Positions 41,636-63,858 of a DNA stretch of 64,000 nucleotides are shown piece after piece (position 1 is the stretch's first letter; every line of letters starts with the position of its first letter). The notes under the pieces are model-generated. The model worked only from the letters and a program-made list of their open reading frames with translations, was not told the origin of the DNA and did not search any database. Source of the stretch: Ignavibacteriota bacterium (lineage in GTDB: Bacteria; Bacteroidota; Ignavibacteria; UBA10030); NCBI GenBank assembly GCA_963769605.1, contig CAVYML010000009.1:1419041-1483040 (forward strand). The letters run 5' to 3'. A program made the translations under genes and the position numbers.

Positions 41636-44600
41636 ATGAAATTGTCCTTCGTGTTGTTGTCATTGGCGCTTTGTCTCATCTTCCTTCCTCTTGCTGCTCG
41701 AGGGCAAGGTACACTCACGGGAACAGTGAGAGATTCTTCCACTCATGAAACGATTATTGGTGCCAATATTATTCTCTTGGGTTCGTCGCTTGGATGCGCA
41801 ACAAACCTCGATGGAGAATTTCGACTCACTGCGATTCCTGAAAAGATATTTCGTATCAGGATAACTTGTATAGGATATGAAGCACGGGAATTCGAAATCG
41901 ATTTTAGTAAAATAAATTCCGCCAGCCTGGATGTTCAGCTTCCTCCCAAGGCTATAAGCATGGGGGAAGTTGTTGTTCTGGGTCAAATGCGCGGACAACT
42001 GCAGGCTATCAACCAGCAAGTTACATCCAAAACGATCGTAGATGTCGTATCGGAAGAAAAGATTCAAGAACTGCCCGACGCAAACGCTGCCGAATCGATC
42101 GGACGACTGCCGGGTGTTTCCCTTATTCGGTCCGGGGGCGAGGCAACCAACGTAGTTTTGCGCGGATTGAGTTCGAAATTCAGCAATATCACTGTCGATG
42201 GCGTTAAAATTCCTCCGACGGATCCAAACTCACGCGATGTGGATCTGAGCATGATATCACAAAGTGCATTGTCGGGCATTGAATTGCATAAGACTCTTAC
42301 AGCCGACCAGGATGCAGATGCGATTGCGGGATCGATCAATCTGGTCACCAAGAAGGCACCTTCAGAACGTCTCCTTCAATTTGATCTCAAAGGTGACTAC
42401 AACTATCTCATGGAATCGGCAGGACAGTACCGATTTTACGGGCCGATATGGAGAGCGATTCTTCGACGATATTCTCGGTGTGCAGATCCAGGGCAACGCG
42501 GAGCAGAAGATTCGAAGCAGAGAGGATATCTCAAACCACTACTCCATGAGTAATAACTCGGCCAGTCTGTTCCCTATCCTCGATGGACCTGCCGATGTTT
42601 ACGGAAATACCTACACGCTGGATCAGATTACGAGAACGTTTACAGATGAACAGCGTAAAAGAAATGGGGGGCAGGCAATCTTCGATGTGAATACTCCAGA
42701 CAGCGGTTCGGTAAAACTCTCCGGGTTGTATAGTGAAACCAATAAAAATACGATGGTTTATAGCAGGATACTCCCCAATGGGTATGGTGGACCGGATTTT
42801 GACTATCAGTATACCCAACAACAAATCAGCACAGTCAATACCTCCATCCAGGGAATCAATTATCTTTTAGGGTTGACTGTCGATTGGAATCTTGCGTATG
42901 CACAATCGAAGATCACAAACCCGGATGGATTTCGTGCATCGTTCCAGCAGGGTGGGTCAGACCCTAATAATTTTTCGACCGTCGTGCTCGATAGTTCTGA
43001 AATCATTCATCAAGAAAACTTCGACAAAGAACAGACATTTCAACTGAACCTTTCGCGAAAAGTAGCATTAGGGGATGCGTTTGCGGATGAATTTAAGTTT
43101 GGAGGCAAGTATAAGGACAAGACGAGGTGGATGAACAACAGCGGTTTCAACTGGAACAACTATCGCTCATTCAACAGTTTTGAGAACGCAGATGGAACAC
43201 CGATCAGTTATGCCGGAACTCGATTTGCGGGTGTAACAACAACGGCGCCGTCTCTTTCCTACTTTCTAGATACACCTGTACCTACGCGCAATTTGATGGG
43301 CATGTACATGTTAACACCACTCATCAATGAAGATGCCTTCAAACAGTGGTATGCCCTGAACAAGAATGCGATCTATCCGTCTTCACCTGCCGATTACGGT
43401 CCGAATGCGCTGGCTGTTCTCAGCGACTACAATGTAATAGAACGAGTGTCGAGCGGCTATTTAATGAATACGCTTGATATAGAGCAGCGCACGACTCTTA
43501 TTCTCGGAATCCGCGTGGAGAAAGAATCCAACAATTACGGTGCGGAGAACTCAGACCGATCGGTGGGTGGAACCGGATCGGTTTCACTGATTACAGGGAA
43601 GATCATGGATACGACTGCGAACTACCAGGAGACGATTTGGCTTCCGAGTGCACAGCTGACATATAAAGCTGCGGACTATCTGACGTTGAGATTTGCAGCA
43701 TACCGGGCGCTGGCACGTCCGGACTTCGATCTGCGTCTGCCGCAATTTGCATATAGCACTACGACTCAGGTCTTTGTTCTTGGGAATCCGAATCTGAAAG
43801 ATGCAAAGGCATGGAACTACGAGGTCAATACACAACTCTTCGACAATATCATCGGCCTCTTCTCCGTATCGGTGTACTATAAAGTCATTGACGACATGTT
43901 TCATCAAACGAATGATTTGGAAATTAGCTGGCCTGCCGGAGGACCTAATACACTCATAGGGAACAATGGATGGACGACGAATGCAGCGTCGGGACTCATA
44001 TATCGAATGGACAATCTGCTCGATCAATTAAACCTGTCCTCGTGGAAAAACAACGCTGTGTTTAACAGTATTCTCACCAGCAATGCCTACAAAGCGAATA
44101 TTGCCTACAACTCTCCTGATCTGTCGTACGCGTGGGGGTTGGAGATAGAGCATCAAATAAACTTTATGTTTCTTCCCGTCTCATGGCTTCAAAATGTGAC
44201 GCTCTCCTATAATCTGTCCTTTGCGCGTTCGAGGACGAATATTCTGGTCGGAACAGAGGTTGTTGATACGACGTATACTCCCGGCACAACAGGAGCTCAT
44301 GGAAAACCTCCGAAATTAAATTTTCTGGAAGACGGGGTCCCGATATGGCAAACACACCAATCGGAAGATCAACCCACTTTCTATATGAATGTGGCTCTCG
44401 GGTATGACATCAAAGGATTTTCCATCAGGCTCTCCGTGTACCATCAAGCCCAGTACACGGCACAGTACTCTGCAGCCGGAACATCTGATGCGATTGTAGA
44501 TCCGTTTACGAAGTGGGATCTCGCTGTAAGGCAGCAAATCTCATCAACAATCTCACTCTTTGCGAATGTGAACAACATTTTCAACAAACAGGAAACGACA

Positions 44601-44696
44601 TCACGATACAATAATCTGTTCAATTGGGGATACCTGCCGAAAACGGCGGAATTATACGGCACATCCGTGGATTTTGGAGTGCGGGTATCAATATAA
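41636..44696 (+). pseudogene. TonB-dependent outer-membrane receptor (SusC/RagA-like with CarboxypepD_reg N-domain), apparently frameshifted near 42430-42480 (ORFs 41636..42553 and 42264..44696)
   Basis: Signal peptide. The carboxypeptidase-regulatory-like domain is GTLTGTVRDSSTHETIIGANIILLGSS...DGEF. The plug domain is DVVSEEKIQELPDANAAESIGRLPGVSLIRSGGEATNVVLRGLS. The long C-terminal beta-barrel continues in a second frame. Confidence 0.7.
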
Positions 44697-47075: not shown

Positions 47076-47179
47076 GGACTTTTGAAAGCATACATGTGAA
47101 TTGTGAAGCATCCAGTTCGAGTTGTTTTGGACTGGATGCTTCGTATATTTGTAAGGAAGAAGAAAGAGACGAAAAAGCG

Positions 47180-47932: not shown

Positions 47933-48035
47933 GTCTATAGGTTAGTCCATTGCGTTCATGACGTGCTTTTCGCTTCTCGCTTTCCCTGCATTATTGGAAA
48001 AGAGAAACAAAATATTTTTTCAAATCAAGAATCCT

Positions 48036-48995
48036 ATGAATACAATACTCGAGCATATCGGTCTTTTGGGAATCCTCCCTGTGGCCATAGTTGAAGATGA
48101 GAGAAAAGCATCTTTGCTCGCACAGACATTGCGAGCGAACGCTTTGCCGGTGATTGAAGTAACCTTCCGTACGCAAGCTGCGGTTCGTGTTATCGAACGT
48201 ATCGCGTCTGATGCTTCGCATATCACCGTCGGGGCAGGAACCGTTTTATCCACAGATCAGGTAAAAGAAGCAGTGAATGCCGGTGCAAGTTTTATTGTCT
48301 CTCCGGGTTTGAATCCCAAAGTGGTGGAATATTGCCTGGTCCGGAATATCCCCGTAGTTCCCGGCCTTGCAACACCGACGGAAATTCAGTGCGCACTGGA
48401 ATATAATCTTGAAGTGGTAAAATTTTTTCCGGCCGAGGCATGCGGAGGACTGCCATACTTGCAGGCTATTGCAGCGCCATTTAAGAATTTGAAGTTTATT
48501 CCAACCGGAGGTATTGATCAATCGAACTTTCTGCCGTACCTTCAATGTCCGGAAGTACTGGCATGTGGAGGAAGCTGGATGGTGAAACAGGAGCTTCTTA
48601 AGGAAAATCAGTTCGAGAAAATCGGCGCATTGATTCGTCTGGCAATTACAGGCATGCTTGGATTCGGACTTCGACATATAGGAATGAACTCCGCTTCCCC
48701 AAAGGAGGCAGTTGCTGTTGCGCAACAACTGGAAGAAATATTTCACATGGAGCAAAGGGAAACGCCCGGCTCGATTTTTCTCGGAACGGGATTCGAAGTA
48801 TTAAAGAGGCAGTATCTTGGAACACACGGACACATCGCCATTGCGACAAATTTCATCGACCGCGCGGTTGCACATCTTGCGCTGAAAGGCGTGCGTGTCA
48901 AGGAAGAGACCCGCGATGTACGAAACGGTAAACTTGCTGCGGTTTATCTTGACATGGAAATCGGCGGATACGCAGTGCATCTTCTTCAAGTGTAA
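48036..48995 (+). CDS. eda: KDPG/KHG aldolase (Eda) fused to a C-terminal ~110-aa VOC/glyoxalase-like domain
   Basis: The Eda core is LPVIEVTFRT...VGAGTVL...ASFIVSPG...PGLATPTE...VKFFPAE...FIPTGGI. The C-terminal extension is HIGMNSASPKEAVAVAQQLEEIF...HIAIATNFIDRAVAHLALKGVRV, a beta-alpha-beta-beta-beta VOC-like pattern. The start was chosen at MNTILEH. Confidence 0.75.
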   Translation: MNTILEHIGLLGILPVAIVEDERKASLLAQTLRANALPVIEVTFRTQAAVRVIERIASDASHITVGAGTVLSTDQVKEAVNAGASFIVSPGLNPKVVEYCLVRNIPVVPGLATPTEIQCALEYNLEVVKFFPAEACGGLPYLQAIAAPFKNLKFIPTGGIDQSNFLPYLQCPEVLACGGSWMVKQELLKENQFEKIGALIRLAITGMLGFGLRHIGMNSASPKEAVAVAQQLEEIFHMEQRETPGSIFLGTGFEVLKRQYLGTHGHIAIATNFIDRAVAHLALKGVRVKEETRDVRNGKLAAVYLDMEIGGYAVHLLQV

Positions 48996-49023: not shown

Positions 49024-49857
49024 ATGGATGTTCGTTATAGTACGGATCCGGAACGATTTAAAACGATGCCGCCGGAGTCTCTGCGAACGATGTTTTTGAT
49101 CGATAATCTCTTTGTTCCCGATGAAGTGCCTGTGACCTATTCGGATATCGACCGGTCGATTACAGGTTCGGCTGTTCCAAAAACTAAGATCCTGACACTG
49201 CTGGCATCAAAGAAAGAAATGGCATCTGAGTATTTTGCGGAAAGAAGGGAAATCGGTATTATCAATATCGGCGGCACGGGTTCGATTATCGTAGATGTCA
49301 ATGTATTTATGCTGGAACGGAAGGATGCACTCTACATTGGCCGCGGTGCACGAACGATAGAATTCAAGAGCGTAAAAGAATCCGATCCGGCGAAGTTCTA
49401 TTTTGTCAGTTATCCGGCCCATAAGGAATTCCCGACAACATTCGTTCCCTTTGCAGATGCCGACTGCTCGAGTTTGGGAAGTCAACAGGATGCCAACAAG
49501 CGCACGATCAATAGATTGATCCATGCCGGCGGTGTAAAGAGCTGTCAACTTGTGATGGGACTGACGGAACTGGAAGAAGGAAACGTGTGGAATACTATGC
49601 CGCCGCACACGCATCAACGCCGGTCGGAAGTGTATATGTATTTTAATATGCAGCCCAGTGTAGTTGTTGCACACTTCATGGGTCAGCCGGAAGAAACGAG
49701 ACATATCATCATTCGGGACGAGCAGGCAGTGCTCAATCCGAGCTGGTCGATTCACTCCGGCGTAGGAACTCGGAGCTACAGTTTTATCTGGGCGATGGGG
49801 GGAGAAAATCAGGTGTTTAACGACATGGATGATGTTCCTATGAGTCTGCTTCGGTAA
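49024..49857 (+). CDS. kduI: 5-dehydro-4-deoxy-D-glucuronate isomerase
   Basis: The N-terminus MDVRYSTDPERFKTMPPESLRTMFLIDNLF and the 277-aa length match KduI. It has a cupin-like HxH motif (PPHTHQRRSE). Confidence 0.85.
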   Translation: MDVRYSTDPERFKTMPPESLRTMFLIDNLFVPDEVPVTYSDIDRSITGSAVPKTKILTLLASKKEMASEYFAERREIGIINIGGTGSIIVDVNVFMLERKDALYIGRGARTIEFKSVKESDPAKFYFVSYPAHKEFPTTFVPFADADCSSLGSQQDANKRTINRLIHAGGVKSCQLVMGLTELEEGNVWNTMPPHTHQRRSEVYMYFNMQPSVVVAHFMGQPEETRHIIIRDEQAVLNPSWSIHSGVGTRSYSFIWAMGGENQVFNDMDDVPMSLLR

Positions 49858-49885: not shown

Positions 49886-51097
49886 ATGAAAAAAGGCAAT
49901 CTCGATAACCTCTTTAGAATTTCGGTACTGAAAAAAACCATTTATATCATGTCGGTTTTATGTACGATGTCGATCTGCGTTTTTGGAAAGGATACAGGAG
50001 CACACATCATGCTCTCGAATCCGCTATCCATCGATCGTCCGAATGAAATGATCGTCCTTGGATGGAATGAGATCAGGAAAATCATACCTGAAGTAAAAAA
50101 GGAAACGATCCATGTGCTCGAAGCGAAAACGCACATCGAAATGCCGCTGCAGATCGTGGAAGACAACGGTGCGCCGGCAGAGGTGATTTTTCTTGTTTCG
50201 TTGAGATCGTACGAAACGAAAGAATTCGATGTTGAATCGTCTGCTCGAAAGAGACCGGTCCTCGAATCGTTGACCGATGCACGTTATATGCTCCCGCGCC
50301 AGGATGTCGCGTGGGAGAATGACAGGATTGCTCATCGGATGTACGGCCCGGCGCTTGCAAAGGAATCGAATAACGGCATTGACGTCTGGACGAAGCGTGT
50401 ACGGTATCCGATAGTAGAAAAATGGTATCGCGGCGATGAGACGCCCGGATCTGCAAGAATCTCGTATCATGAAGACCATGGCGAAGGAGCCGATTTCTTT
50501 GAAGTCGGTCGTTCACTCGGCGATGGAAGCTGCGCCCTTATTGAAGGAGATTCTTTGTACCAGCCGGGTGTGTTCGAATCATACAAAATACTTGCGACAG
50601 GCCCTCTTCGTGCAATGTTCGAAGTTTCGTACAAACCGGTACGATTCAGGAATCTCGAAATCAGGGAAATAAAACGCATCACGCTGGATGCAGGAAGCAA
50701 TCTCAATAAAATAGAAGTAACCTATCGGTGTGATTCCGCAAAGGGCGGCGTCCCATTTGCAGCGGGTCTTGTCAAACGAGAAGGCATAAAAGTTTATTGG
50801 GATAAGGATCATCATTGGGCATCATTATGGGGGCAAACGACGGAAAACGAAGAGAACGGATCGTTGGGAACCGGTCTTGTCGTACCCAAAGAAACCTTCA
50901 CTGGAATGCACGAAACCGCCGTACATCTTCTTGTCACAGGAACAGCCGAATTAGGCAAGACAGCAGTGTATTATGCGGGTGCAGGGTGGACACGCAGCGG
51001 CGATTTTAAGAATGCCGATGAATGGAACCAATACCTTGCAATATACGCGAAGCGGATCGAAGGTCCTTTGAAGATTTTGATATCGGCAAAAGAATGA
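49886..51097 (+). CDS. Hypothetical exported protein (possibly a DUF4861-type protein, as often seen in pectin loci)
   Basis: Signal peptide and a 403-aa size. It lies in the pectin/hexuronate cluster. The family assignment is unverified. Confidence 0.4.
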   Translation: MKKGNLDNLFRISVLKKTIYIMSVLCTMSICVFGKDTGAHIMLSNPLSIDRPNEMIVLGWNEIRKIIPEVKKETIHVLEAKTHIEMPLQIVEDNGAPAEVIFLVSLRSYETKEFDVESSARKRPVLESLTDARYMLPRQDVAWENDRIAHRMYGPALAKESNNGIDVWTKRVRYPIVEKWYRGDETPGSARISYHEDHGEGADFFEVGRSLGDGSCALIEGDSLYQPGVFESYKILATGPLRAMFEVSYKPVRFRNLEIREIKRITLDAGSNLNKIEVTYRCDSAKGGVPFAAGLVKREGIKVYWDKDHHWASLWGQTTENEENGSLGTGLVVPKETFTGMHETAVHLLVTGTAELGKTAVYYAGAGWTRSGDFKNADEWNQYLAIYAKRIEGPLKILISAKE

Positions 51098-52568: not shown

Positions 52569-53402
52569 ATGAATCTGCAAGATGTTACAGAAGCATATGA
52601 TTTTATAGGAAAGACTGTCGTCATTACGGGCGGCGGCGGTGTGTTGTGCGGACAGATTGCACGCTGCCTTGCCGGCTGTAATGCCAACATCGCTCTTCTT
52701 GACCGCGATGTTTCGCTTGGCGAAAAAGTTCTGTCGACATTAAACGGTACGAAAGGCAAGCATAAGGTAATATTTATCGATGTGCTCGATAAGGTCAAAG
52801 TACAGGAAGCTGCCGATCAAACGCTTTCCGAATTCGGAAAAATAGATATTCTCATCAACGGCGCCGGCGGAAACAATCCCAGAGCAACAACCAATCCCGA
52901 ACAGTCGTTCTTCGATATTCCGAGCGAAGCCATTCAATTTGTTTCGAATCTGAATCTTATGGGGACAATTCTGCCGAGTCAGGCATTCGGCAGGAAAATG
53001 GTAGAACAAAAAGAAGGTATCATTCTCAACGTTTCCTCCATGAATGCTTTCCGGCCGCTGACGCGCATTCCGGCATACTCGGCTGCAAAAGCAGCCGTCA
53101 GTAATTTTACGCAATGGCTGGCCGTGCATATTGCACAGGAGTATTCGCCCGCGATTCGCGTAAATGCCATTGCGCGTGGTTTTTTCCTGACGAAGCAGAA
53201 TAGATTCTTATTGACGGAAAAGGAAACCGGAGCACTCACTGCCCGCGGGAAAAAAATTCTTGATCATACGCCGATGGGGCGTTTCGGCGTTCCGGAAGAT
53301 TTACTTGGTGCTGTGCTTTGGCTGCTCTCACCTGTGTCGAAATTCGTTACGGGAATCGTGCTGCCCATCGACGGCGGATTCTCGGCTTTCTCAGGAGTGT
53401 AG
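52569..53402 (+). CDS. SDR family oxidoreductase (candidate SDR-type D-mannonate/altronate oxidoreductase)
   Basis: VITGGGGVLCG is the Gly motif. NGAGG and catalytic YSAAKAA are present. 277 aa. It sits between exuT and the sugar kinases. Confidence 0.7.
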   Translation: MNLQDVTEAYDFIGKTVVITGGGGVLCGQIARCLAGCNANIALLDRDVSLGEKVLSTLNGTKGKHKVIFIDVLDKVKVQEAADQTLSEFGKIDILINGAGGNNPRATTNPEQSFFDIPSEAIQFVSNLNLMGTILPSQAFGRKMVEQKEGIILNVSSMNAFRPLTRIPAYSAAKAAVSNFTQWLAVHIAQEYSPAIRVNAIARGFFLTKQNRFLLTEKETGALTARGKKILDHTPMGRFGVPEDLLGAVLWLLSPVSKFVTGIVLPIDGGFSAFSGV

Positions 53403-53428
53403 AAAAAAGATACTGATTACAATAACAG

Positions 53429-54529
53429 ATGAAAAAGGAGTTTGAGATGAGTCAGGGTTTGAATATTCTTCCGCAGCGTGCATATGATTTGATTTCTCTG
53501 GGCGCGCTGGTACATCGGCTGGATCCGGGAATTATTCCGTTCAGGAAAGCAGCACAATGCCGGATCCACGTCAGCGGCGGGGAGTTTAATCTCGCGGCGA
53601 ACATTGCGGATTGTTTTCGGCTTAGGACAGGAATTGTATCGGCGATGGTAGATTATCCCATCGGCGATCTCATTGCCGAGCGTGTAAGAGCTATGGGCGT
53701 GCAGCCGTTCTATAAGCACTTTACGCACAATGGCGTGAACGGACCGAACATGGCTGCAGTCTACAGTGATCGAGGATACGGCGTACGTCCGCCGGTGGTC
53801 TTCTACAACCGTTCGAATGAAGCCGGCGCTCAGTTGAAACCCGGCGACTTCGATTGGAATACAATCTTTGACGGCGGCGTGCGATGGTTCCATAGCGGCG
53901 GCATTTTTGCAGCGCTGTCTGAAACTACGGGCGAGCTCATCATCGAGGGAATGAAAGCGGCAAAGAAAGCCGGTGCGGTTGTCAGCTTCGACCTGAACTT
54001 CCGCGAGAAACTTTGGAACATCTGGGGCGGACAGAAAAAAGCGGCGGAAGTTGTAGCACGAATCGTAGAAAATACCGACGTGCTCGTTGGAAATGAAGAA
54101 GACCTTCAAAAAGGACTGGGAATCCCCGGACCTGAGGTTGCTGCAAAATCAAAACTCGATCCGAGCGCTTTTATCGGTATGATTGATACCGTTGTAAAAA
54201 AATATCCCAATGTTAAAGTCATTGCAACGACCCTCCGCGAAGTGCACTCGACGAATCATCATACCTGGGGTGCGGTTGCATGGGTCGACGGCAAAGCATA
54301 CACTTCGCCGGCATGCGAGCTCGATGTCGTGGATCGAGTGGGCGGCGGCGACGGATTTGCAAGCGGATTCTTTTATGGATTGCTTGCAGGAGAATCTCCT
54401 GAAGAAGCGGTAAAGCTCGGCTGGGCGCATGGCGCTTTGTTGACGACAACACCCGGCGATACGACAATGGTCACCGTGGAGCAAGTTCGCTCGTTTGCCA
54501 AAGGAGGCTCTGCAAGGATTCAGCGGTAA
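53429..54529 (+). CDS. kdgK: PfkB family sugar kinase (2-dehydro-3-deoxygluconokinase-like)
   Basis: PfkB signature 2 is DRVGGGDGFASGF. The ribokinase-like fold is about 366 aa. Confidence 0.75.
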   Translation: MKKEFEMSQGLNILPQRAYDLISLGALVHRLDPGIIPFRKAAQCRIHVSGGEFNLAANIADCFRLRTGIVSAMVDYPIGDLIAERVRAMGVQPFYKHFTHNGVNGPNMAAVYSDRGYGVRPPVVFYNRSNEAGAQLKPGDFDWNTIFDGGVRWFHSGGIFAALSETTGELIIEGMKAAKKAGAVVSFDLNFREKLWNIWGGQKKAAEVVARIVENTDVLVGNEEDLQKGLGIPGPEVAAKSKLDPSAFIGMIDTVVKKYPNVKVIATTLREVHSTNHHTWGAVAWVDGKAYTSPACELDVVDRVGGGDGFASGFFYGLLAGESPEEAVKLGWAHGALLTTTPGDTTMVTVEQVRSFAKGGSARIQR

Positions 54530-54600
54530 AATGCAACGATGAACAATATTTATTTTTCAGGAACTGCTGAGCGAGCATTCTCGCGCTTGAAAGGAAGATC

Positions 54601-55686
54601 ATGGGACTGAAGATTCAAGAAGCAAATAAATGTGAATTTGATTTATTGACACTCGGGGAATGCATGATTCGTCTTAGTCCTCCCGGTCATCAACGGTTAG
54701 AACTAACGCCGTTCCTGGAGATTTATGCCGGGGGCGGCGAATACAATGTTGCTTACGCACTTTCCCGATTCGGGTTGAAAGCAGGATGGATTTCCCGCCT
54801 TGTGGACAATCCGCTGGGACAGTTTATTCGCAACCATGCACAGGCGAGCGGGATGGATCTCAGCGAAGTTGTCTGGGCACCGTTCGATGGTATCGGTAGA
54901 ACCGAACGGATCGGTTTGAACTTCAGCGAGGTGGGGATCGGAGTACGGCCAAGCACCGTTGTGTATGATCGCGGTCATACAGCTGTTTCCCATATGAAAT
55001 CCGGCGATGTGGATTGGAAAAGAATCTTCATGCATCGGAAAGCCCGTTGGTTCCATACCAGCGGCATTTTTACAGCGTTGAGCGATAGTTGCACTGCCGT
55101 TGCATTGGAAGCGTTGAAGGCCGCACATGATGCCGGATGCATCGTCAGCTATGATTTGAATTTTCGCAGCAGGCTCTGGTCATGCCAGAAAGCGATCACT
55201 ATAACGAAGACGCTTGTCCCGTACATTGATGTGCTCATCGGTAATGAAGAGGATTTTCAAAAAGTATTGGGATTTGAAGTAGAAGGCACAGACAGCAGTT
55301 TCAAGCATCTTCCGGTGGAAGCGTATAAAGAAATGGTGAAGAAAGTGGTTGCCGCATATCCGAACGTTCAGGTTGTAGGAACCACACTCCGCGAAGTTGT
55401 AAGCGGGCTGAAAAATAATTGGTCTGCGATTGTTTACGCAGAAGGCGAGTTTGTGGAATCGAAAAAATATGAAAATCTGGAGATTGAAGACCGTGTTGGC
55501 GGCGGCGATGGATTCTGCAGCGGACTCATTTACGGTTTACTCCAGGGAATGAAACTTCAGGAGTGTGTCGAATTGGGTGCTGCGCATGGCGCACTGACAC
55601 AAAGCACGCGCGGGGATTCCACCATGGCGACACTTGCAGAAGTCAAACATGTCATGGACGGAGGGTCCGCAAGGATTGTACGATAG
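54601..55686 (+). CDS. PfkB family sugar kinase, paralog (candidate gluconokinase/KDG kinase)
   Basis: DRVGGGDGFCSGL. The N-terminus is LLTLGECMIRLSP, as in the KdgK family. 361 aa. Confidence 0.7.
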   Translation: MGLKIQEANKCEFDLLTLGECMIRLSPPGHQRLELTPFLEIYAGGGEYNVAYALSRFGLKAGWISRLVDNPLGQFIRNHAQASGMDLSEVVWAPFDGIGRTERIGLNFSEVGIGVRPSTVVYDRGHTAVSHMKSGDVDWKRIFMHRKARWFHTSGIFTALSDSCTAVALEALKAAHDAGCIVSYDLNFRSRLWSCQKAITITKTLVPYIDVLIGNEEDFQKVLGFEVEGTDSSFKHLPVEAYKEMVKKVVAAYPNVQVVGTTLREVVSGLKNNWSAIVYAEGEFVESKKYENLEIEDRVGGGDGFCSGLIYGLLQGMKLQECVELGAAHGALTQSTRGDSTMATLAEVKHVMDGGSARIVR

Positions 55687-55795
55687 TGTGGAAGAAAAAT
55701 ATGTATTGCTCTGCCAATACCGAGAATTTTATATTCGGGGAATGTTACAGGCGCTTTTCCTGTTCCTCAATATAAAGATGTAAAGAAGGAGAAGA

Positions 55796-57073
55796 GTGAT
55801 GATATTCTACGCACGCGGCGGTGAACATGATGTTTTGGAAAATGTGGATTTGTGCCGGGCCATCGATGAAGCCTTTGAAAAGCTCGGACAAAGGAAAAAA
55901 GTTCTCGCCATTCCACCGGACTTTACCCGCTTCCATTCTCAGGCGGGAATCCTGACGGAAATGCTGTGGAACTATTACAAGGATGCCCTCACCGATATTC
56001 TTCCCGCTCTGGGAACTCACTCAGCGATGACGGAACATGAACTGCGAACGATGTACGGTTCTACGCCGCTCAACCTTTTTCGTGTTCACGATTGGCGTCG
56101 TGATGTTGTAACGCTCGGTGAAGTGCCTTCCGATTTCATCTGCCGGGAGTCCGAAGGAAAACTCGATTATGCCTGGAAAGCGCAGGTGAATAAACTGCTT
56201 GTCGAGGGCGGCTTTGATTTAATCGTCTCTATCGGACAGGTGGTGCCGCACGAAGTTGTCGGCATGGCGAACTATAACAAAAATGTTTTTGTCGGAACAG
56301 GCGGACCGGAAGGAATTAACAAAAGCCATTTTCTCGGTGCAGTCTACGGTATGGAACGTATTATGGGACGTGCCGATAATCCCGTGCGGCGTGTGTACAA
56401 TTACGCATCGGACCATTGTTCAGACAGCCTGCCGCCGATTGTGTATGTGCTAACCGTCGTTGGACGCGGCAGCGACGGAAGCCTGAAAGTACGCGGCCTC
56501 TACATCGGCGACGATGCCGAATGCTTCAACCGGGCGTCGGAACTTTCTCTTAAAGTGAATTTTGAAATGCTGGAAGAACCGTTGAAAAAAGTCGTCGTGT
56601 ATCTCGACCCTTCGGAATTCAAGAGTACATGGCTGGGGAATAAAAGTATCTACCGCAGCCGCATGGCTCTTGCGGACGGCGGCGAGCTGATTATTCTTGC
56701 GCCGGGATTGAAAGAATTCGGCGAGGATAAACGGATTGATGCCCTGATTCGAAAGTACGGTTATCGCGGAACGCCGGAAACGCTTGCACGTGTAAAAGAA
56801 TCGGACGAACTGAAAAAAAACCTGAGTGCAGCGGCGCATCTTATACACGGTTCTTCCGAAGGACGTTTCTCCATTACCTACTCTCCCGGCTATTTGACGA
56901 AACAGGAGATCGAGAGCGTGAATTTTCACTACGCGAATCTCGGGCAGGTGATGAAGAAATATAATCCGGAAAAACTATCCGACGGGGTGAACGTTTTGCC
57001 GGATGGTGAAGAGATTTTCTATATTTCAAATCCGGCGCTCGGATTGTGGGCGTGCAGGATTCGATTTGTTTGA
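55796..57073 (+). CDS. LarA-family (DUF2088, nickel-pincer-dependent alpha-hydroxyacid racemase/epimerase-like) protein
   Basis: The pattern VLAIPPDFTRFHSQAGIL ... ALGTHSAMTEHELRTMYG matches LarA-family motifs (D-x-TR ... A-x-G-T/H-H-R/S-x-M-T/S) and the ~425 aa length. The start may be at 55799. Confidence 0.55.
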   Translation: MMIFYARGGEHDVLENVDLCRAIDEAFEKLGQRKKVLAIPPDFTRFHSQAGILTEMLWNYYKDALTDILPALGTHSAMTEHELRTMYGSTPLNLFRVHDWRRDVVTLGEVPSDFICRESEGKLDYAWKAQVNKLLVEGGFDLIVSIGQVVPHEVVGMANYNKNVFVGTGGPEGINKSHFLGAVYGMERIMGRADNPVRRVYNYASDHCSDSLPPIVYVLTVVGRGSDGSLKVRGLYIGDDAECFNRASELSLKVNFEMLEEPLKKVVVYLDPSEFKSTWLGNKSIYRSRMALADGGELIILAPGLKEFGEDKRIDALIRKYGYRGTPETLARVKESDELKKNLSAAAHLIHGSSEGRFSITYSPGYLTKQEIESVNFHYANLGQVMKKYNPEKLSDGVNVLPDGEEIFYISNPALGLWACRIRFV

Positions 57074-57120
57074 AACGATGTGTGGCAATGATAAACATGA
57101 ATAAGGAAGAAAAAAGATCT

Positions 57121-58575
57121 ATGGAACAAAAAGCTGATATCGGTTTAGTCGGCCTGGCAGTAATGGGCGAAAACCTTGTAATTAATATGGAGAGCCGCGG
57201 ATTTACCGTTGCGGTGTACAACCGTACGGTCGAAAAGGTCGATGCCTTTACCGGCGGCCGGGGCCGCGGGAAGAAAATAATCGGAACGCATTCTCTGCAT
57301 GAACTTGCCGGCGCTTTGAAAGGGCCGCGCAAGATTATGCTCATGGTAAAAGCAGGCAAAGCGGTGGATGATTTCATCGAGCAATTGATCCCGTTGCTTT
57401 CACCCGGCGACATTATCATCGACGGAGGTAATTCGCATTTTCCGGATACTATACGAAGAACAAAGTACGTGGAATCTAAAGGACTTCTCTACATCGGCAC
57501 CGGTGTATCGGGCGGTGAAGAAGGCGCACTCAAAGGCCCGTCAATCATGCCCGGCGGTTCGCCTGCCGCATGGCCGCATATAAAACCGATTTTCCAGGCA
57601 ATTGCTGCAAAGGTAGAAGACGGAACTCCATGCTGCGATTGGGTCGGGGAAAACGGAGCGGGTCATTTCGTGAAAATGGTACATAACGGCATAGAGTACG
57701 GCGATATGCAGCTTATCTGTGAAGCATATCAAATTATGAAAGAATTGCTCGGCATGTCCGCTTCCGCCATTCATAAAGTGTTCAAACGCTGGAATGAGGG
57801 CGAATTGAACAGTTATCTGATCGAAATAACGCGCGACATCCTTGCATACAAAGACACAGACGGTAAACCGCTCGTAGATAAAATTCTTGACACTGCAGGA
57901 CAAAAAGGGACTGGAAAATGGACGAGCGTTTCCTCTCTCGATCTCGGTATTCCGCTCACGCTGATCAGCGAAGCTGTTTATGCACGATGTCTTTCCGCAA
58001 TGAAAGACGAACGCATGGCTGCGTCAAAAATTTTAAGCGGGCCGGAGAAAAAAAATATAAAGAACAAAGAAGCGTTCCTGCGTGATCTGGAAAAGGCGCT
58101 GTACGCTTCCAAAATTATATCATACACGCAGGGCTATGTGCTTATGCGAGCGGCTGCCGAAGAGTATAAATGGAACCTCAACTACGGCGGCATAGCGCTG
58201 CTCTGGCGCGGCGGCTGCATCATTCGTTCGGTCTTCCTCGGAAGAATCAAGGAAGCATTCGACCGGAATCCGCAGCTTTCCAATCTGCTGCTGGATCCTT
58301 TTTTCAAAGAGACTATTGAAAAGTCGCAGAAGTCATGGCGTCGTGTGGTGTCGACGGCTGCCTTGAATGGAATTTGGATGCCGTCATGCTCGACAGCGTT
58401 GAGCTACTACGATGGATTTCGCAGCGCACGGCTGCCTGCGAATTTACTGCAGGCCCAGCGCGACTTCTTCGGTGCTCATCAATATGAGCGTGTCGACAAA
58501 CCGCGCGGTGAATTCTTCCACACGAACTGGACGGGGCACGGAGGAGAAACGGCTTCTTCGTCGTACATCGTTTAA
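57121..58575 (+). CDS. gnd: 6-phosphogluconate dehydrogenase, decarboxylating
   Basis: The N-terminal NADP-binding motif is IGLVGLAVMGENLVINMESRGFTVAVYNRT. Also present are GDIIIDGGNS and HNGIEYGDMQLI. 484 aa from the internal Met. Confidence 0.9.
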   Translation: MEQKADIGLVGLAVMGENLVINMESRGFTVAVYNRTVEKVDAFTGGRGRGKKIIGTHSLHELAGALKGPRKIMLMVKAGKAVDDFIEQLIPLLSPGDIIIDGGNSHFPDTIRRTKYVESKGLLYIGTGVSGGEEGALKGPSIMPGGSPAAWPHIKPIFQAIAAKVEDGTPCCDWVGENGAGHFVKMVHNGIEYGDMQLICEAYQIMKELLGMSASAIHKVFKRWNEGELNSYLIEITRDILAYKDTDGKPLVDKILDTAGQKGTGKWTSVSSLDLGIPLTLISEAVYARCLSAMKDERMAASKILSGPEKKNIKNKEAFLRDLEKALYASKIISYTQGYVLMRAAAEEYKWNLNYGGIALLWRGGCIIRSVFLGRIKEAFDRNPQLSNLLLDPFFKETIEKSQKSWRRVVSTAALNGIWMPSCSTALSYYDGFRSARLPANLLQAQRDFFGAHQYERVDKPRGEFFHTNWTGHGGETASSSYIV

Positions 58576-58680: not shown

Positions 58681-60090
58681 ATGACGCCGATGAACCGGAG
58701 AAGACCAACCTGTTTTATTTTTGTATTCGCTTATGCTACTCTCTCGTTTTATGCGCATGCGCAAATAGATACAAATGCGGGATGGCAAGCGATGCCTTCC
58801 CTGTTTCAGCGGATTGTGCCGCCGTCATTCCCCGATAAGGATTTCGATATTACAAACTTCGGAGCGAAGGGAGACAGCATAACAGATTGCACGGCTGCAT
58901 TTGAGAAGGCGATTACAGAGTGTAACGCATCCGGCGGCGGCCGGGTGATCGTTCCAACAGGCATATTTCTGACGGGCGCACTGCATTTGAAAAGTCACGT
59001 GCATCTGTACGTGTCCCGAGGCGCGGTCATCCGGTTCAGTATCGATCCGAAGAAATATATTCCCCTTGTGTATACGCGGTGGGAGGGTACCGAGTGCATG
59101 AATTATTCTCCTCTTATATATGCTTTTGAGCAGGAAGACATTGCTGTGACAGGCGAAGGTATTCTTGAAGGTCAGGGGTCGAACGAGCATTGGTGGAGCT
59201 GGAAAGGAAAGAGAGAAACTGGATGGCGTGCCGGCATGCCGAATCAATTGGCTGCTCGCACAGAGCTCCTTGAGATGGCAGAGAAGAACGTTCCCGTTGC
59301 GAAACGTATTTTTGGGGAAGGAGCATACCTGCGTCCGAATTTCTTCGAACCGTATCGATGTAAGAATGTGCTGTTGCAAGGTGTGACATTGAGAAACTCA
59401 CCGATGTGGTTTATAAATCCCGTTCTCTGCAAGAATGTGTCCATCATTGGTGTGACAACCGACGGACTCGGTCCAAACAACGATGGCTGTGACCCGGAAT
59501 CCTGTGCCGATGTCTTAATAGAAAATTGCGTCTTCAATAACGGCGACGATTGCATTGCGGTGAAATCAGGAAGAAATGCAGATGGCCGGCGTATTAATGT
59601 CCCGTGTGAGAATATTGTTATACGCGGGTGTACTATGAAGAATGGACATGGCGGTGTCGTGATCGGCAGTGAAGTCTCCGGCGGAATAAGAAATGTGTTT
59701 GCCGAAAATAATGTTATGGATAGTCCGGAATTCGATCGAGTATTGAGAATCAAGACAAATGCCACGCGCGGAGGCGTGATTGAAAATGTGTTTCTCCGGA
59801 ACATCAGGGCCGGGCAGGTGACCGATGCGATCGTGAAGGTCGATTTCTTCTATGAAGAAGGCGACAGCGGCGGTTTTGTGCCGATTGTGCGGAATATTGA
59901 TGTGCGAAATATCAGCAGTAAGAAGAGCAGGTTTGGGATCTGGATTCGTGCGTTTGTTCGCTCTCCAGCAGAGAATATTCATATCGAAGATTGCATTTTT
60001 GAAAATGTTGCGGAAGCAAACGTCATCGAGAATGTGAAGAATATGACCCTCATAAACGTGCAAACGAAGCAGAATGAAAAAATGAAGTGA
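58681..60090 (+). CDS. Glycoside hydrolase family 28 (polygalacturonase/exo-poly-alpha-galacturonosidase)
   Basis: Signal peptide. The GH28 motifs are NDGCDP, GDDCIAVKSG, GHGGVVIGSE and RIKT. 469 aa. Confidence 0.88.
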   Translation: MTPMNRRRPTCFIFVFAYATLSFYAHAQIDTNAGWQAMPSLFQRIVPPSFPDKDFDITNFGAKGDSITDCTAAFEKAITECNASGGGRVIVPTGIFLTGALHLKSHVHLYVSRGAVIRFSIDPKKYIPLVYTRWEGTECMNYSPLIYAFEQEDIAVTGEGILEGQGSNEHWWSWKGKRETGWRAGMPNQLAARTELLEMAEKNVPVAKRIFGEGAYLRPNFFEPYRCKNVLLQGVTLRNSPMWFINPVLCKNVSIIGVTTDGLGPNNDGCDPESCADVLIENCVFNNGDDCIAVKSGRNADGRRINVPCENIVIRGCTMKNGHGGVVIGSEVSGGIRNVFAENNVMDSPEFDRVLRIKTNATRGGVIENVFLRNIRAGQVTDAIVKVDFFYEEGDSGGFVPIVRNIDVRNISSKKSRFGIWIRAFVRSPAENIHIEDCIFENVAEANVIENVKNMTLINVQTKQNEKMK

Positions 60091-62102
60091 GAGAAATGCC
60101 GGTTCGCAAAAAAGAAACGGATACGCAGATGCTGAAGAAACTTTTGGTATGTAGCATGTTCTTTTGTTTGTCGGCAAGTGTTGGAGCCGCTGCTGCACGG
60201 ACGATAGCAAAACAGGATGAACGCTGGTCGGAACGAATTGCAAAAAGCTTTCTTTCGATGCATCCGGATTCTATTTCTTATCCTGCAGAGTTGAAGTCCC
60301 GCAAATGGAATTACGAACAGGGAGTGATGATGGAAGCCTTCTTCCATCTATGGCAGGAGACGGAGGACAGCGAGTACGTACGTTACATCAAAAAAAATCT
60401 CGATTACTATATAGACTCTGCCGGCACGATCCGCACCTACCGCTTCGACGAATATCAACTGGATAACATAACGCCGGGAAAAGCTCTGCTGAGGATGTAC
60501 GATCTTACGGGCGAGAAAAAATACATCTCAGCCGCCGCAACGCTTCGCCGGCAGCTCGCAGAACAGCCCCGCACGAGTGAAGGCGGTTTCTGGCACAAGA
60601 AGATATACCCGCATCAAATGTGGCTTGACGGAATGTATATGGCGGAACCGTTCTACGGTCTCTATTCCCGGATGACGGGCGACTCAGCAGCCTTTGACGA
60701 TATAGTGAAGCAATTTACCCTGTGCGCCGGTTATTGCTTCGATCCCAAAAGCGGTCTTTATTTTCATGGGTGGGATGAAAGCAAGCAGCAGCGATGGGCG
60801 AATCCCGAAACGGGCTGCTCGCCGAGTCTGTGGGGACGTTCCATCGGGTGGTACACGATGGGACTTGTGGACGCGCTGGAGTATATTCCCCCGCAGCATT
60901 CGCAACAGCAGGCTCTTCTGAAAATTCTCAATGATGTATGCACTCATCTGCTTCCGATGCGTGATGAGAAAACAAAACTGTGGTATCTTATTGTGGACAA
61001 ACCGAATGCAAAAGGAAACTATATTGAATCGTCCGCATCGGCGATGTTCGCGTATGTCTTTGCAAAAGGAGCACGTCTCGGTTATTTGCCGGCCGAGTTT
61101 CGGCAGCGGGCGGAAGAAACATTTAACGGGCTCTTGAATTATGCAGTGACGGTCGATTCATCGGGCATTGTTCATCTCGAAGATGTGTGCAGTGTTGTCG
61201 GACTTGGCGGCAATCCGTATCGCGACGGGAGCCTGTCATATTATGCCTGCGAGCCGCAGCGCACGGATGATTTTAAAGGATACGGGCCTTTTTTAATGGC
61301 GGCAATTGAATTGGAGCGAGGAGATCACACGATCGATGTTCCATCTCTCAAACCGAAGAAAATAGTCGCTCTGGATTATTATTTCAACTGCGAATGGCGA
61401 CGCGTGGATATGTCGCTGGTGCAGTATCATTATGTGTGGGAAGACACGATGAATTCCGGATTCTCGCAACTCGGTGCAATCATCAAAAGTCTCGGAGCCG
61501 AAATCGCTGCAGTGCATGAATCTCCTACGAGCAGCCTGCTACGCAAGTATCAAGTCTACATGATCGTTGATCCCGATACTCCTGAAGAGACGGCACATCC
61601 CAACTATGTATCGGAATCCGCCATTCAATCTATTGTTCCATGGGTTAAAGCCGGCGGCGTGCTGGTGTTGATGGCAAATGATTCTGGGAATGCTGAATTT
61701 ACCCATTTTAACAAATTGGCCGAACGGTTCGGCGTGCATTTCAATGAAGATAGTTATCATCGTGTGAAGGGAAAAGCATATGACATGGGAAAGAGTGATA
61801 AACTTCCACTACATCCTGCGTTTAAAGATGTGAAGCAGATATTTCTAAAAGAAATATGTTCTCTTACTTTGCAGGAACCTGCAGAACCGATATTAGTAGA
61901 ACAGGGTCATGTATTTATGGCAAGCGCGCGCATCGGACACGGTCTCGTCTTTGCCGTTGGTGATCCTTGGTTCTATAACGAATATATGGAGATGCGAAAA
62001 CTTCCCGCTGCTTTTGAAAACAGTAAAGCTGCAAGGAATCTCTTCCATTGGCTCTTGGGACAAGCGCAAGATCCATGTAAATCGAATTCTGAGATAAAAT
62101 GA
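60087..62102 (+). CDS. Glycoside hydrolase family 105/88 (unsaturated rhamnogalacturonyl/glucuronyl hydrolase, YteR-like) fused to a C-terminal ~290-aa domain of unknown function
   Basis: The N-terminal half resembles YteR/YesR (alpha/alpha-6 barrel; WNYEQGVMMEAFFHLW...GGFWHKKIYPHQMWLDGMYMAEPFY...HGWDES). The C-terminal half (KIVALDYYFN...GGVLVLMANDSGN...GDPWFYNEY) has no assigned family. The start overlaps the upstream GH28 stop. Confidence 0.7.
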   Translation: MREMPVRKKETDTQMLKKLLVCSMFFCLSASVGAAAARTIAKQDERWSERIAKSFLSMHPDSISYPAELKSRKWNYEQGVMMEAFFHLWQETEDSEYVRYIKKNLDYYIDSAGTIRTYRFDEYQLDNITPGKALLRMYDLTGEKKYISAAATLRRQLAEQPRTSEGGFWHKKIYPHQMWLDGMYMAEPFYGLYSRMTGDSAAFDDIVKQFTLCAGYCFDPKSGLYFHGWDESKQQRWANPETGCSPSLWGRSIGWYTMGLVDALEYIPPQHSQQQALLKILNDVCTHLLPMRDEKTKLWYLIVDKPNAKGNYIESSASAMFAYVFAKGARLGYLPAEFRQRAEETFNGLLNYAVTVDSSGIVHLEDVCSVVGLGGNPYRDGSLSYYACEPQRTDDFKGYGPFLMAAIELERGDHTIDVPSLKPKKIVALDYYFNCEWRRVDMSLVQYHYVWEDTMNSGFSQLGAIIKSLGAEIAAVHESPTSSLLRKYQVYMIVDPDTPEETAHPNYVSESAIQSIVPWVKAGGVLVLMANDSGNAEFTHFNKLAERFGVHFNEDSYHRVKGKAYDMGKSDKLPLHPAFKDVKQIFLKEICSLTLQEPAEPILVEQGHVFMASARIGHGLVFAVGDPWFYNEYMEMRKLPAAFENSKAARNLFHWLLGQAQDPCKSNSEIK

Positions 62103-62181
62103 TGCCGATGCAGAAAGATGTTCTTGATCGACGATCCAATGGTGAATCCTGAAAAGAAATAAGAAAGGCTGAAACAGTTAG

Positions 62182-63858
62182 TTGAAACATTGGGAATATT
62201 TATTTATTGGTTTACTCAGTGCAGTGCCGGGTGTCCGGCCGGTTATTGCTCAAACAGCCATGGATTCGGTATCGAAGTTCGTCGAGCCGGGACATAAGAG
62301 AATTCAGATTCCTTCATTTCCGGACCGGAGCGTCGACATCATTGCTCACGGTGCTTTTGGTGACGGTCAAACGCTAAATACAAAAGCATTTGCGGACGCC
62401 ATTGAAGCATGTTCGCAAGCGGGCGGCGGGAGAGTTGTTGTTCCCGCAGGGATTTGGTTAACGGGACCAATCGTTTTGAAGAGTAAAATCAATCTGCATC
62501 TTGAAAATGGAGCCGTCATTCTCTTTAGCAAGAGACTGGCGGACTATCCGATTCTTCCACAACCAACACCGACTTCGAAGAATTATTCCTATCCACCTAT
62601 GATCTCCGGTTTTAATCTGATGAATGTCGCAATAACTGGAGATGGCATTGTCGATGGCAATGGAGATGTCTGGAGGCCGAGGAAAAAAGAAAAGTATTCA
62701 CCGCATGAATGGGAAGAGATTGTCTCTTCCGGAGGCGTGATGAATAGGGCCGGATCCGTATGGTGGCCCTCGAAGGAATCTTTGCACGGCGAGGAATACT
62801 TGATGGCGCTGAAGAAGAAAAAACTCCCAGTTACTGCGGGTAATGTGGAAGTCATGCGGGAATATCTACGTCCGAATTTGATTGAGCTGTTCGGATGCAA
62901 GAATGTTCTGTTCGATGGTCCATCGTTTCAAAATTCTCCGAAGTATGTCCTTTATCCGACGCAATGCGAGAATGTCACGATCCAGAATACAGCAGTACGT
63001 AATCCGTGGAATGCACAAAACGGCGATGGTATAGATATCAACGCATGCCACGATGTCCTCATCTCCCATTGCACGGTAGATGTGGGGGATGATGGTATTT
63101 GTTTGAAGTTAGGGAAGCCGGATCCGGAACGTGGATGGAGCGTTGCATGCGAGAACATCAGAATAGAAAACTGCACCGTTTTTCGGGCGCATGGCGGTTT
63201 CGTCATCGGGAGCAGCACGGATGGCGGTGCGCGAAATGTGGCAGTACAGAATTGCATTTTCAGCGGAACGGATGTCGGACTTCGATTGAAATCAGGCAGG
63301 AATCATACAGGAATTGTGGAGGATATCCACATTGATGGCATTCGCATGAAGGATATTCGAGGAGAAGCGATTGTGTTCGATCTCTACTATGAAAACATTC
63401 CGGCGGCGGGTGATCGCGTTGCGGATACATCGGCGAAAGTTCTCGAGCAGAAGGGGGAACTGCCGTTCTTCAGAAACTTCACAATTGAAAATATCACTTG
63501 TGTCGGTGCGCAGTACGCTATTCACATCAACGATTTACCGGAATGTTGTGTACGAAACATCGCATTCAATCATCTGATCATTGAAGCGGAACGAGGCCTC
63601 CAATGCACGAATAGCGAGGCAATGAGTTTTCGTGATTTGCATCTTGTTGTGCATAGCGGACCGGCCTTTGTGTTTCAGGATGCAAGCAATATTTCTCTCG
63701 ACGATGTTACTGCGTCAGGATATGGAAAAATATTCTTGCAGGTAAATGGGTCACGCTCAAAAGCTATCCATTTGAAGAACATCCATGCATCGAAAGAACA
63801 AAAACAAATTGTTTTGGGAACTGAATGTTCTTCGGATGTCGTGAACGAAGAACCCTAA
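62182..63858 (+). CDS. Glycoside hydrolase family 28 (polygalacturonase/rhamnogalacturonase), second copy
   Basis: GDGIDI, GDDGICLKLG, AHGGFVIGSS and RLKSG motifs. 558 aa. Confidence 0.85.
   Translation: MKHWEYLFIGLLSAVPGVRPVIAQTAMDSVSKFVEPGHKRIQIPSFPDRSVDIIAHGAFGDGQTLNTKAFADAIEACSQAGGGRVVVPAGIWLTGPIVLKSKINLHLENGAVILFSKRLADYPILPQPTPTSKNYSYPPMISGFNLMNVAITGDGIVDGNGDVWRPRKKEKYSPHEWEEIVSSGGVMNRAGSVWWPSKESLHGEEYLMALKKKKLPVTAGNVEVMREYLRPNLIELFGCKNVLFDGPSFQNSPKYVLYPTQCENVTIQNTAVRNPWNAQNGDGIDINACHDVLISHCTVDVGDDGICLKLGKPDPERGWSVACENIRIENCTVFRAHGGFVIGSSTDGGARNVAVQNCIFSGTDVGLRLKSGRNHTGIVEDIHIDGIRMKDIRGEAIVFDLYYENIPAAGDRVADTSAKVLEQKGELPFFRNFTIENITCVGAQYAIHINDLPECCVRNIAFNHLIIEAERGLQCTNSEAMSFRDLHLVVHSGPAFVFQDASNISLDDVTASGYGKIFLQVNGSRSKAIHLKNIHASKEQKQIVLGTECSSDVVNEEP

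Follow-up and report, generated by a model that had tools for sequence, protein, structure and literature searches.

The Ashwell isomerase pathway degrades hexuronates by means of UxaC, UxaB/UxuB, UxaA/UxuA, 2-dehydro-3-deoxy-D-gluconate (KDG) kinase (KdgK) and Eda. A different branch, in which mannonate is converted to gluconate and then to 6-phosphogluconate (GntE-GntK-Gnd), was proposed for Thermotoga maritima by Rodionova in 2012, a proposal taken here in the form in which later papers cite it (PMC6978723, PMC7583248). Here, we analyze a hexuronate locus in a stretch of 64,000 nucleotides (the window) from contig CAVYML010000009.1 of an Ignavibacteriota bacterium, where a gene for a LarA-family protein, a predicted hexonate 2-epimerase of the type that uses the nickel-pincer nucleotide (NPN), is clustered with genes for a short-chain dehydrogenase/reductase (SDR), two PfkB kinases and 6-phosphogluconate dehydrogenase (Gnd). 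This block is very probably the lower half of a pectin/hexuronate catabolic operon, through which saturated uronates would bypass the KDG route and enter the pentose phosphate pathway.

Two further studies bear on such a route. Desguin 2020 reported that GntE1 and GntE2 epimerize D-mannonate and hypothesized that group 18 of the LarA homologues (LarAH18; dataset label ‘G2E3’) epimerizes a hexonate; Table S1 of that paper gives the gene context of group 18 as SDR (36%), Gnd (32%), a ribokinase-family kinase (16%), UxaC, KduI and a major facilitator superfamily (MFS) protein (PMC7583248). In the work of Valk 2020, the carbon of galacturonate reached 6-phosphogluconate in Lactobacillus suebicus extracts via a mannonate kinase, followed by a 6-phosphomannonate 2-epimerase (PMC6978723). 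The concept of the route is therefore not new: it had been put forward for T. maritima, demonstrated in L. suebicus extracts and hypothesized for group 18. Specific to the present locus are the group 18 enzyme, a partner kinase of the PfkB type, and the complete lack of a dehydratase branch.

The window protein is a full-length member of the group 18 of Desguin 2020, in the same gene context and with no difference from it; that paper neither lists LarB, LarC or LarE in the context of group 18 nor remarks that carrier genomes lack them (PMC7583248). T. maritima GntE2 (LarAH20; TM0442, PDB 4NAR), which when purified epimerizes D-mannonate to D-gluconate (PMC7583248), resembles it in the LarA fold (TM 0.83), in the catalytic and NPN-binding residues, in a signature of the E-x-A-H type, and in the setting of its gene, a hexuronate locus that also encodes UxaE, fructuronate reductase, a kinase and Gnd. 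The two proteins are, however, only ~24–30% identical and belong to groups 20 and 18, respectively. T. maritima has UxuA, and its epimerase route is a side branch, whereas in the window genome it is the only recognizable route; T. maritima also has LarB, LarC and LarE, whereas the window genome has LarC only. The T. maritima kinase of the 2012 proposal reportedly belongs to another family, and that of the window is of the PfkB type. L. suebicus shares UxaC, UxaE and UxuB, the conversion of mannonate to 6-phosphogluconate, and Gnd. It differs in that a kinase and then an epimerase act on phosphorylated intermediates, in that its proteome points to GntK-annotated kinases rather than PfkB, and in that the pathway continues through phosphoketolase. 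With the Ashwell pathway the window genome shares UxaC, KdgK and Eda, and KduI and KduD would feed KDG from unsaturated uronates, but dehydratases for altronate or mannonate are absent from it, as is a long-chain reductase.

A five-gene block and a genome without hexonate dehydratases

The source genome (G000), assembled from a soil or freshwater-sediment metagenome, comprises 4.19 Mb in nine contigs and was scored as 100% complete; the window spans positions 1419041–1483040 of its contig C9. An earlier note on this DNA had described a cluster of one SDR, two PfkB kinases, a LarA-like protein and Gnd, and both the open reading frames (ORFs) and the profile matches agree with it. The five ORFs all lie on the + strand, with short gaps:

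52569..53402, + strand: SDR-type UxuB, predicted short-chain fructuronate reductase (D-mannonate oxidoreductase); NF006132 362 bits (cut-off 281)
53429..54529, + strand: PfkB-1, divergent KDG-kinase-like PfkB-family protein; candidate gluconate or mannonate 6-kinase, from its co-occurrence with the epimerase
54601..55686, + strand: PfkB-2, predicted 2-dehydro-3-deoxygluconokinase (KdgK) serving the KduI/KduD and Eda branch; PF00294 104 bits, 2AFB 250 bits
55796..57073, + strand: LarAH18, predicted NPN-type C2 epimerase converting a manno- to a gluco-hexonate, free or 6-phosphorylated; NF052594 652.8 bits (cut-off 500), Lar_N (Pfam) 44 bits
57046..58575, + strand: Gnd, second and dedicated 6-phosphogluconate dehydrogenase (decarboxylating); TIGR00873 762 bits

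The absence of a UxuA-type mannonate dehydratase and of UxaA, which the earlier note had reported for the window, extends to the whole genome: neither the window nor the rest of the assembly holds a match to PF03786 or PF04295. Genome-wide searches likewise found no Mannitol_dh_C-type long-chain reductase (UxaB/UxuB), no Edd and no GntK of the SKI type; FGGY-type GntK was not searched for genome-wide, and the one FGGY gene that was looked at is a ribulokinase. The place of GntK, adjoining the epimerase, is occupied by a PfkB-family kinase. UxaC is present (657 bits), its two apparent copies reflecting an assembly overlap of contigs C3 and C6, and so is the tagaturonate/fructuronate epimerase UxaE (172–174 bits). 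The UxaC cluster further contains a transketolase gene (tkt), a second SDR-type mannonate oxidoreductase that is 80% identical to the window SDR, and a PdxB-like dehydrogenase. Because a housekeeping gnd-zwf-pgl cluster exists elsewhere on the contig, and its Gnd is only 46% identical to that of the locus, the latter is considered a dedicated extra copy. The presence of UxaC, UxaE and the SDR together with the absence of the dehydratases implies that saturated uronates would reach D-mannonate, from which the sole recognizable continuation is through the epimerase, a kinase and Gnd.

The proposed route would run as follows. Galacturonate or glucuronate would be isomerized by UxaC, tagaturonate would be converted to fructuronate by UxaE, and the SDR would reduce fructuronate to D-mannonate. 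LarAH18 would then invert C2 of D-mannonate to give D-gluconate, PfkB-1 would convert D-gluconate to 6-phosphogluconate, and the dedicated Gnd would form ribulose-5-phosphate and CO2. Ribulose-5-phosphate would enter the non-oxidative pentose phosphate pathway, for which a transketolase gene stands beside UxaC. The KDG kinase PfkB-2, with KduI, KduD and Eda, would handle the unsaturated uronates freed by GH88. Observed here are the gene identities, the conservation of fold and active site, the genome-wide absence of dehydratases, a conserved synteny, and the co-occurrence of PfkB-1 with the epimerase.

The LarA homologue belongs with gluconate 2-epimerases

The LarA-like protein covers positions 3–410 of the 411 of NF052594 (‘nickel-dependent putative hexonate epimerase’) and is thus full-length; this family corresponds to LarAH group 18 in Desguin et al. 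2020 (PMC7583248). Among solved structures, the top sequence match is 4NAR (E 2e-34), the D-gluconate 2-epimerase GntE2 of T. maritima (PMC7583248). An AlphaFold model (pLDDT 91.9) was compared with solved structures by Foldseek; 4NAR was followed by LarA-family structures only (2YJG, 7S91, 5HUQ, 6C1W, 9EID and 9Q3J/K), and all later matches had E > 1e-3. LarA1 residues D72, R75, H108 and H174, of which the two histidines are catalytic, correspond to D42, R45, H75 and H152 in LarAH18, and the NPN-binding K184 and the nickel ligand H200 correspond to K162 and H178. The specificity signature of GntE enzymes, described in a 2024 JBC paper, is E, V, A and H at LarA1 positions 175, 176, 358 and 359 (PMC11770544); in LarAH18 these are E153, V154, A347 and H348. 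Catalytic, NPN-binding and signature residues (D42, R45, H75, H152, E153, V154, K162, H178, A347 and H348) are all invariant in 57 orthologues. Since GntE2 is the nearest relative and the key and signature residues match, LarAH18 groups with the gluconate 2-epimerases rather than with the lactate racemases, in favor of the earlier note. An exact-sequence look-up found no record of the protein. From its sequence we infer an NPN-dependent 2-epimerase activity on a hexonate, and we likewise infer its substrate.

Orthologues at 65–77% identity occur in at least 586 species genomes, spread over Bacteroidota/Ignavibacteria, Planctomycetota, Acidobacteriota, Verrucomicrobiota, Kiritimatiellota, Lentisphaerota, Calditrichota and others. 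In 80 LarAH18 loci drawn from many phyla, Gnd was found in 60, almost always just downstream, the SDR-type UxuB in 56, UxaE in 33, UxaC in 26 and an MFS gene in 17. A PfkB kinase directly adjoins LarAH18 on the same strand in 31 of them, and SDR, PfkB, LarAH18, Gnd is the usual operon order, recurring across many phyla. Full-length UxuA was present in only 15 of 50 carrier genomes.

These neighborhoods also bear on whether LarAH18 might epimerize another hexonate, such as L-gulonate/L-idonate or D-altronate/D-allonate, with Gnd reached by further steps. Desguin 2020 claims only ‘a hexonate’, and the native substrate of GntE1 is doubted there too (PMC7583248); moreover, the window SDR is also weakly similar to gluconate 5-dehydrogenases. 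However, the only model whose cut-off this SDR exceeds is that of D-mannonate oxidoreductase, the enzymes of the path to fructuronate and mannonate, UxaC and UxaE, co-localize with LarAH18 in 26–33 of the 80 loci, and the specificity signature is identical to that of mannonate/gluconate epimerases. Neither an idonate dehydrogenase nor a uronate reductase was found in the locus, and Gnd is the immediate neighbor. We regard another hexonate as the substrate as highly improbable.

In conclusion, the central idea of the earlier note, a LarA-family C2 epimerase in place of the dehydratase step with hexuronate carbon passing to 6-phosphogluconate and Gnd, is well supported by the family placement and by the genome content, in which uxuA and uxaA are absent and uxaC and uxaE are present.

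The first PfkB kinase tracks the epimerase

The earlier note had paired the epimerase with the second kinase. Comparison of genomes points to the first: PfkB-1 co-occurs with LarA groups and PfkB-2 is closer to the KDG kinase 2AFB, and we therefore assign PfkB-1 (53429–54529) as the epimerase partner and PfkB-2 as KdgK. Among 401 high-quality genomes sampled from the same phylum, orthologues of PfkB-1 (76–85% identity) were found in 25, every one of which carries either LarAH18 (16 genomes) or a sister LarA group (9 genomes), and in none of the 359 genomes that lack both; the genomes are related, and these counts are hence not a statistic of independent samples. In 12 loci the orthologue directly adjoins LarAH18. 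PfkB-2 matches 2AFB at 250 bits, versus 167 bits for PfkB-1, fits KDG-kinase models better, although the NCBIfam equivalog cut-offs, which were built for other lineages, are not reached, and is of a type that is found also in genomes without LarAH18. The two genes of the window are the only KDG-kinase-like PfkB genes in the whole genome. With a PfkB domain and KDG kinases as its nearest characterized similarity, PfkB-2 is a predicted member of the KDG kinases.

The sister LarA group (L021:1399-2667, - strand; L023:1429-2727, + strand; 16 genomes of the phylum sample) scores 150–190 bits against NF052594, is 25–28% identical to the window protein and lacks a dedicated NCBIfam equivalog. A PdxB-like gene and a PfkB kinase flank it; among its 16 carriers, 9 have a PfkB-1 orthologue and 6 lack LarB.

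Order of the epimerase and the kinase

Which of the two enzymes acts first is less clear than the route, and every enzymatic step is a prediction. We tentatively favor epimerization of free mannonate followed by phosphorylation, an order to which we would give slightly less than an even chance. It rests on the measured activity of three purified relatives: GntE1, GntE2 and LarAH15 epimerize free D-mannonate with a kcat of 59–197 per second (PMC7583248, PMC11770544). Alternatively, PfkB-1 may be a D-mannonate 6-kinase and LarAH18 a 6-phospho-D-mannonate 2-epimerase, with 6-phosphogluconate passing straight to Gnd; these two activities would equal those shown in L. suebicus extracts.

Several points weigh against the epimerase acting first. 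Its basis in purified enzymes comes from other groups, the activity of group 18 itself being predicted, and the Km of the related GntEs for free mannonate is high, 9–120 mM (PMC7583248, PMC11770544). L. suebicus extracts converted mannonate and ATP to 6-phosphomannonate and then to 6-phosphogluconate, and 6-phosphogluconate back to 6-phosphomannonate, whereas without ATP no gluconate was formed from mannonate (PMC6978723). In operons the genes commonly run reductase, kinase, epimerase, Gnd; of the 31 PfkB genes that adjoin LarAH18, 28 stand directly upstream of it. Furthermore, a kinase that is confined to genomes with these LarA homologues would more likely have an unusual substrate than plain gluconate. 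Finally, LarB and LarE are missing from the genome, which leaves the accepted cofactor pathway incomplete.

A PdxB-like D-2-hydroxyacid dehydrogenase is also repeatedly linked to the module, a point for phosphorylation before epimerization. The textbook substrate of PdxB is a phospho-aldonate that is oxidized at C2. In the source genome the PdxB-like gene (G000:C6:8696-9847, - strand, the same as L010:8696-9847) stands beside UxaC-Tkt-SDR, and further copies lie at L021:2671-3825 and L023:296-1468. These proteins score 398–424 bits against NF001309, just below its cut-off of 434. Within the 80 loci (L038–L117) the gene lies between LarAH18 and Gnd in 23, and it also adjoins the sister LarA group. 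Possible substrates are 6-phospho-hexonates and 2-keto-6-phosphogluconate, unless the gene is simply a housekeeping pdxB near pentose-phosphate genes.

On the other hand, the activities of purified enzymes in the LarA family cover free D-mannonate only, with good kcat values, the L. suebicus enzymes need not be LarA or PfkB proteins, and gene order is weak evidence. Phosphorylation of mannonate before its epimerization is a possible order, but a somewhat doubtful one. Regarding the route drawn in the earlier note, synteny and genome content uphold its course, kinase 1 replaces kinase 2, and either the epimerase or the kinase may act first, the L. suebicus extracts having begun with phosphorylation (PMC6978723).

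LarAH18 often occurs without a full set of genes for its predicted cofactor

As the earlier note had stated, larB, larC and larE are not in the window. A search of the whole genome recovered LarC and did not find LarB or LarE. LarC is intact, as both the LarC1 and the LarC2 models pass. Its gene, flanked by priA and a Kdo-transferase gene and with no other lar gene nearby, is on the window's contig, ~160 kb upstream. The genome-wide search for LarB returned only a PurE-like match (46.9 bits), and the best match for LarE was NadE; LarB, LarC and LarE of T. maritima were detected as controls. A hidden or divergent LarB or LarE in the source genome was rejected, as tblastn with the proteins of relatives yielded only PurE and NadE.

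Next, 41 genomes of the same order were surveyed. LarB was found in 33, LarE in 33 and LarC in 38, including some genomes without a LarA homologue. That the three are near-universal in the order also where a LarA homologue is absent (G008, G009, G011, G013, G014 and others) implies another NPN-using enzyme there. LarAH18 is carried by all three genomes of the window's genus (G000, G001 and G002), which retain LarC alone, and by G003, which lacks LarB, LarE and LarC. G027 represents a second lineage in the order with LarC and without LarB and LarE, and it carries the sister-group LarA homologue. Because of this second lineage, the combination of LarC only with a LarA homologue has arisen at least twice.

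The pattern extends well beyond the order. LarB, LarE and LarC were all missing in 18 of 50 LarAH18 genomes from many phyla, among them the isolate Melioribacter sp. Ez-97 and the closed chromosome OY782677.1, and 13 of these 18 also lack UxuA. Divergent versions in the 18 genomes were sought by a permissive re-search and rejected, since each yielded at most one short PurE-like gene. In the phylum sample, LarB was missing in 17 of 26 LarAH18 genomes, including three single-contig genomes. On a quick tree of LarAH18, the state without the three genes is scattered, requiring at least 10 changes by parsimony; well-supported branches force at least 3. No gene family that could represent a transporter or an alternative synthesis was enriched near LarAH18 in the genomes lacking the three genes; only pathway genes emerged (p >= 0.01), reflecting phylogeny. 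Nor did any alignment column cleanly discriminate the LarAH18 sequences of genomes with and without them. A literature search for LarA without LarB, LarC and LarE found no report, which is not proof that the state is unreported; the reverse case, the three genes without LarA, is discussed (PMC11796402, PMC13524815).

If the cofactor cannot be made, LarAH18 might be a non-functional leftover in the genus, with hexuronates stopping at mannonate or taking an unrecognized route. The absence of LarB and LarE from G000, G001 and G002, and of all three proteins from G003, would agree with this. Against it, selection on both LarAH18 and LarC is purifying: dN/dS between G000 and G001 was 0.10 for LarAH18, within the 0.04–0.10 range across the SDR, PfkB-1, PfkB-2, LarAH18 and Gnd, and 0.13 for LarC. 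Twelve key residues are invariant in 19 LarAH18 sequences from genomes lacking all three genes, as they are in 29 from genomes with all three, and on the quick tree the lineages without the three genes do not have longer terminal branches than the others. At least 3 lineages, and probably 10 or more, show the pattern, single-contig genomes included, and no alternative mannonate route is encoded in the genome. A leftover is therefore very unlikely. Decay of the gene within the genus was likewise rejected: the G002 copy is frameshifted, but so are Gnd and PfkB-2 in that genome, from which we conclude that the G002 assembly is indel-rich, and the gap in G001 sits at ‘NN’.

The separation of LarAH18 from NPN biosynthesis is widespread, will surprise a specialist, and leaves the supply of the cofactor unexplained. 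LarAH18 might be active in cells unable to make NPN by the known LarB-LarE-LarC pathway, through a cross-fed cofactor or precursor, another biosynthetic route or a different cofactor; we consider this possible, though short of probable. In the case of cross-feeding, NPN or a nickel-free precursor would come from neighboring microbes, and the retained LarC would finish the precursor in this genus. Uptake of NPN would parallel that of cross-fed corrinoids.

Neighboring genes and other features

KduI, KduD and Eda, which the earlier note had reported for the window, lie just upstream of the block, and all three exceed their NCBIfam/TIGR cut-offs. The remaining genes of the locus are:

40755..41492, + strand: GntR/FadR-family regulator, candidate regulator of the locus by its position only; NanR/LldR/UxuR/ExuR-like matches, all below equivalog cut-offs
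41636..44696, + strand: TonB-dependent outer-membrane receptor as two overlapping ORFs (41636–42553 and 42264–44696); TIGR01782
47096..47932, + strand: KduD, 2-dehydro-3-deoxy-D-gluconate 5-dehydrogenase; TIGR01832 370.6 bits (cut-off 338.85)
47958..48995, + strand: Eda, KDPG/KHG aldolase; TIGR01182 230.5 bits (cut-off 156)
49024..49857, + strand: KduI, 5-dehydro-4-deoxy-D-glucuronate isomerase; NF002091 405 bits (cut-off 250)
49886..51097, + strand: DUF4861 / BT3233-family polysaccharide-utilization protein; NF058564 307 bits (just below the cut-off of 320), PF16153 266 bits
51165..52523, + strand: MFS transporter of the anionic-sugar (galactonate-transporter-like) type, candidate hexuronate importer; MFS_1 169 bits, TIGR00893 199.6 bits (below cut-off)
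58681..63858, + strand: GH28 galacturonidase-like protein, GH88 unsaturated uronyl hydrolase and a second GH28, which would supply saturated and unsaturated uronates

In the TonB-dependent receptor at the head of the locus, one ORF matches the N-terminal part of TIGR01782 and the other the barrel, in different frames; the split is either a frameshift or a sequencing error. As the TIGR01832 match begins at residue 32, the true start of KduD is probably later than the nominal GTG. A hairpin with a perfect 20-bp stem at 47102–47145, between a 731-aa gene and kduD, overlaps this nominal start and is probably a terminator or attenuator marking the start of a kduD-to-GH28 transcription unit. A scan for promoter and terminator consensus sequences gave nothing above chance. 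Among the listed holders of the sequence there was no RNA dataset; the four holders are DNA datasets, all from a single soil/sediment study, and one of them is possibly the source of the window.

Other features of the window and its genome were also noted. The minus strand of the window carries a giant 2889-aa ORF at 18174–26843. Contigs C6, C7 and C8 overlap the ends of C3, C4 and C5 at 94–99.9% identity (86–97% for C7 versus C4), pointing to redundancy in the assembly or to strain variants. Repeats of a 615-bp element at C6:6567-7181, probably a mobile element, occur at 99–100% identity on C1, C2, C3 and C9.

Significance

If the proposed route is true, the epimerase route, and not the textbook dehydratase route, would be the main way in which many polysaccharide degraders of soil and sediment use pectin sugars, in Bacteroidota/Ignavibacteria, Planctomycetota, Acidobacteriota, Verrucomicrobiota and Kiritimatiellota. 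PfkB-1 and LarAH18 provide specific candidate genes for converting mannonate to 6-phosphogluconate, as seen in L. suebicus extracts. The conversion of galacturonate to ribulose-5-phosphate is redox-neutral and attractive for the engineering of pectin fermentation (PMC6978723).

The cofactor result may matter more. Although LarAH18 keeps all its NPN-binding residues and evolves under purifying selection, NPN-synthesis genes are missing from between one third and two thirds of the genomes that carry it. Whether NPN is shared between microbes, made in another way or replaced is thus a directly testable question raised by the LarAH18 pattern.

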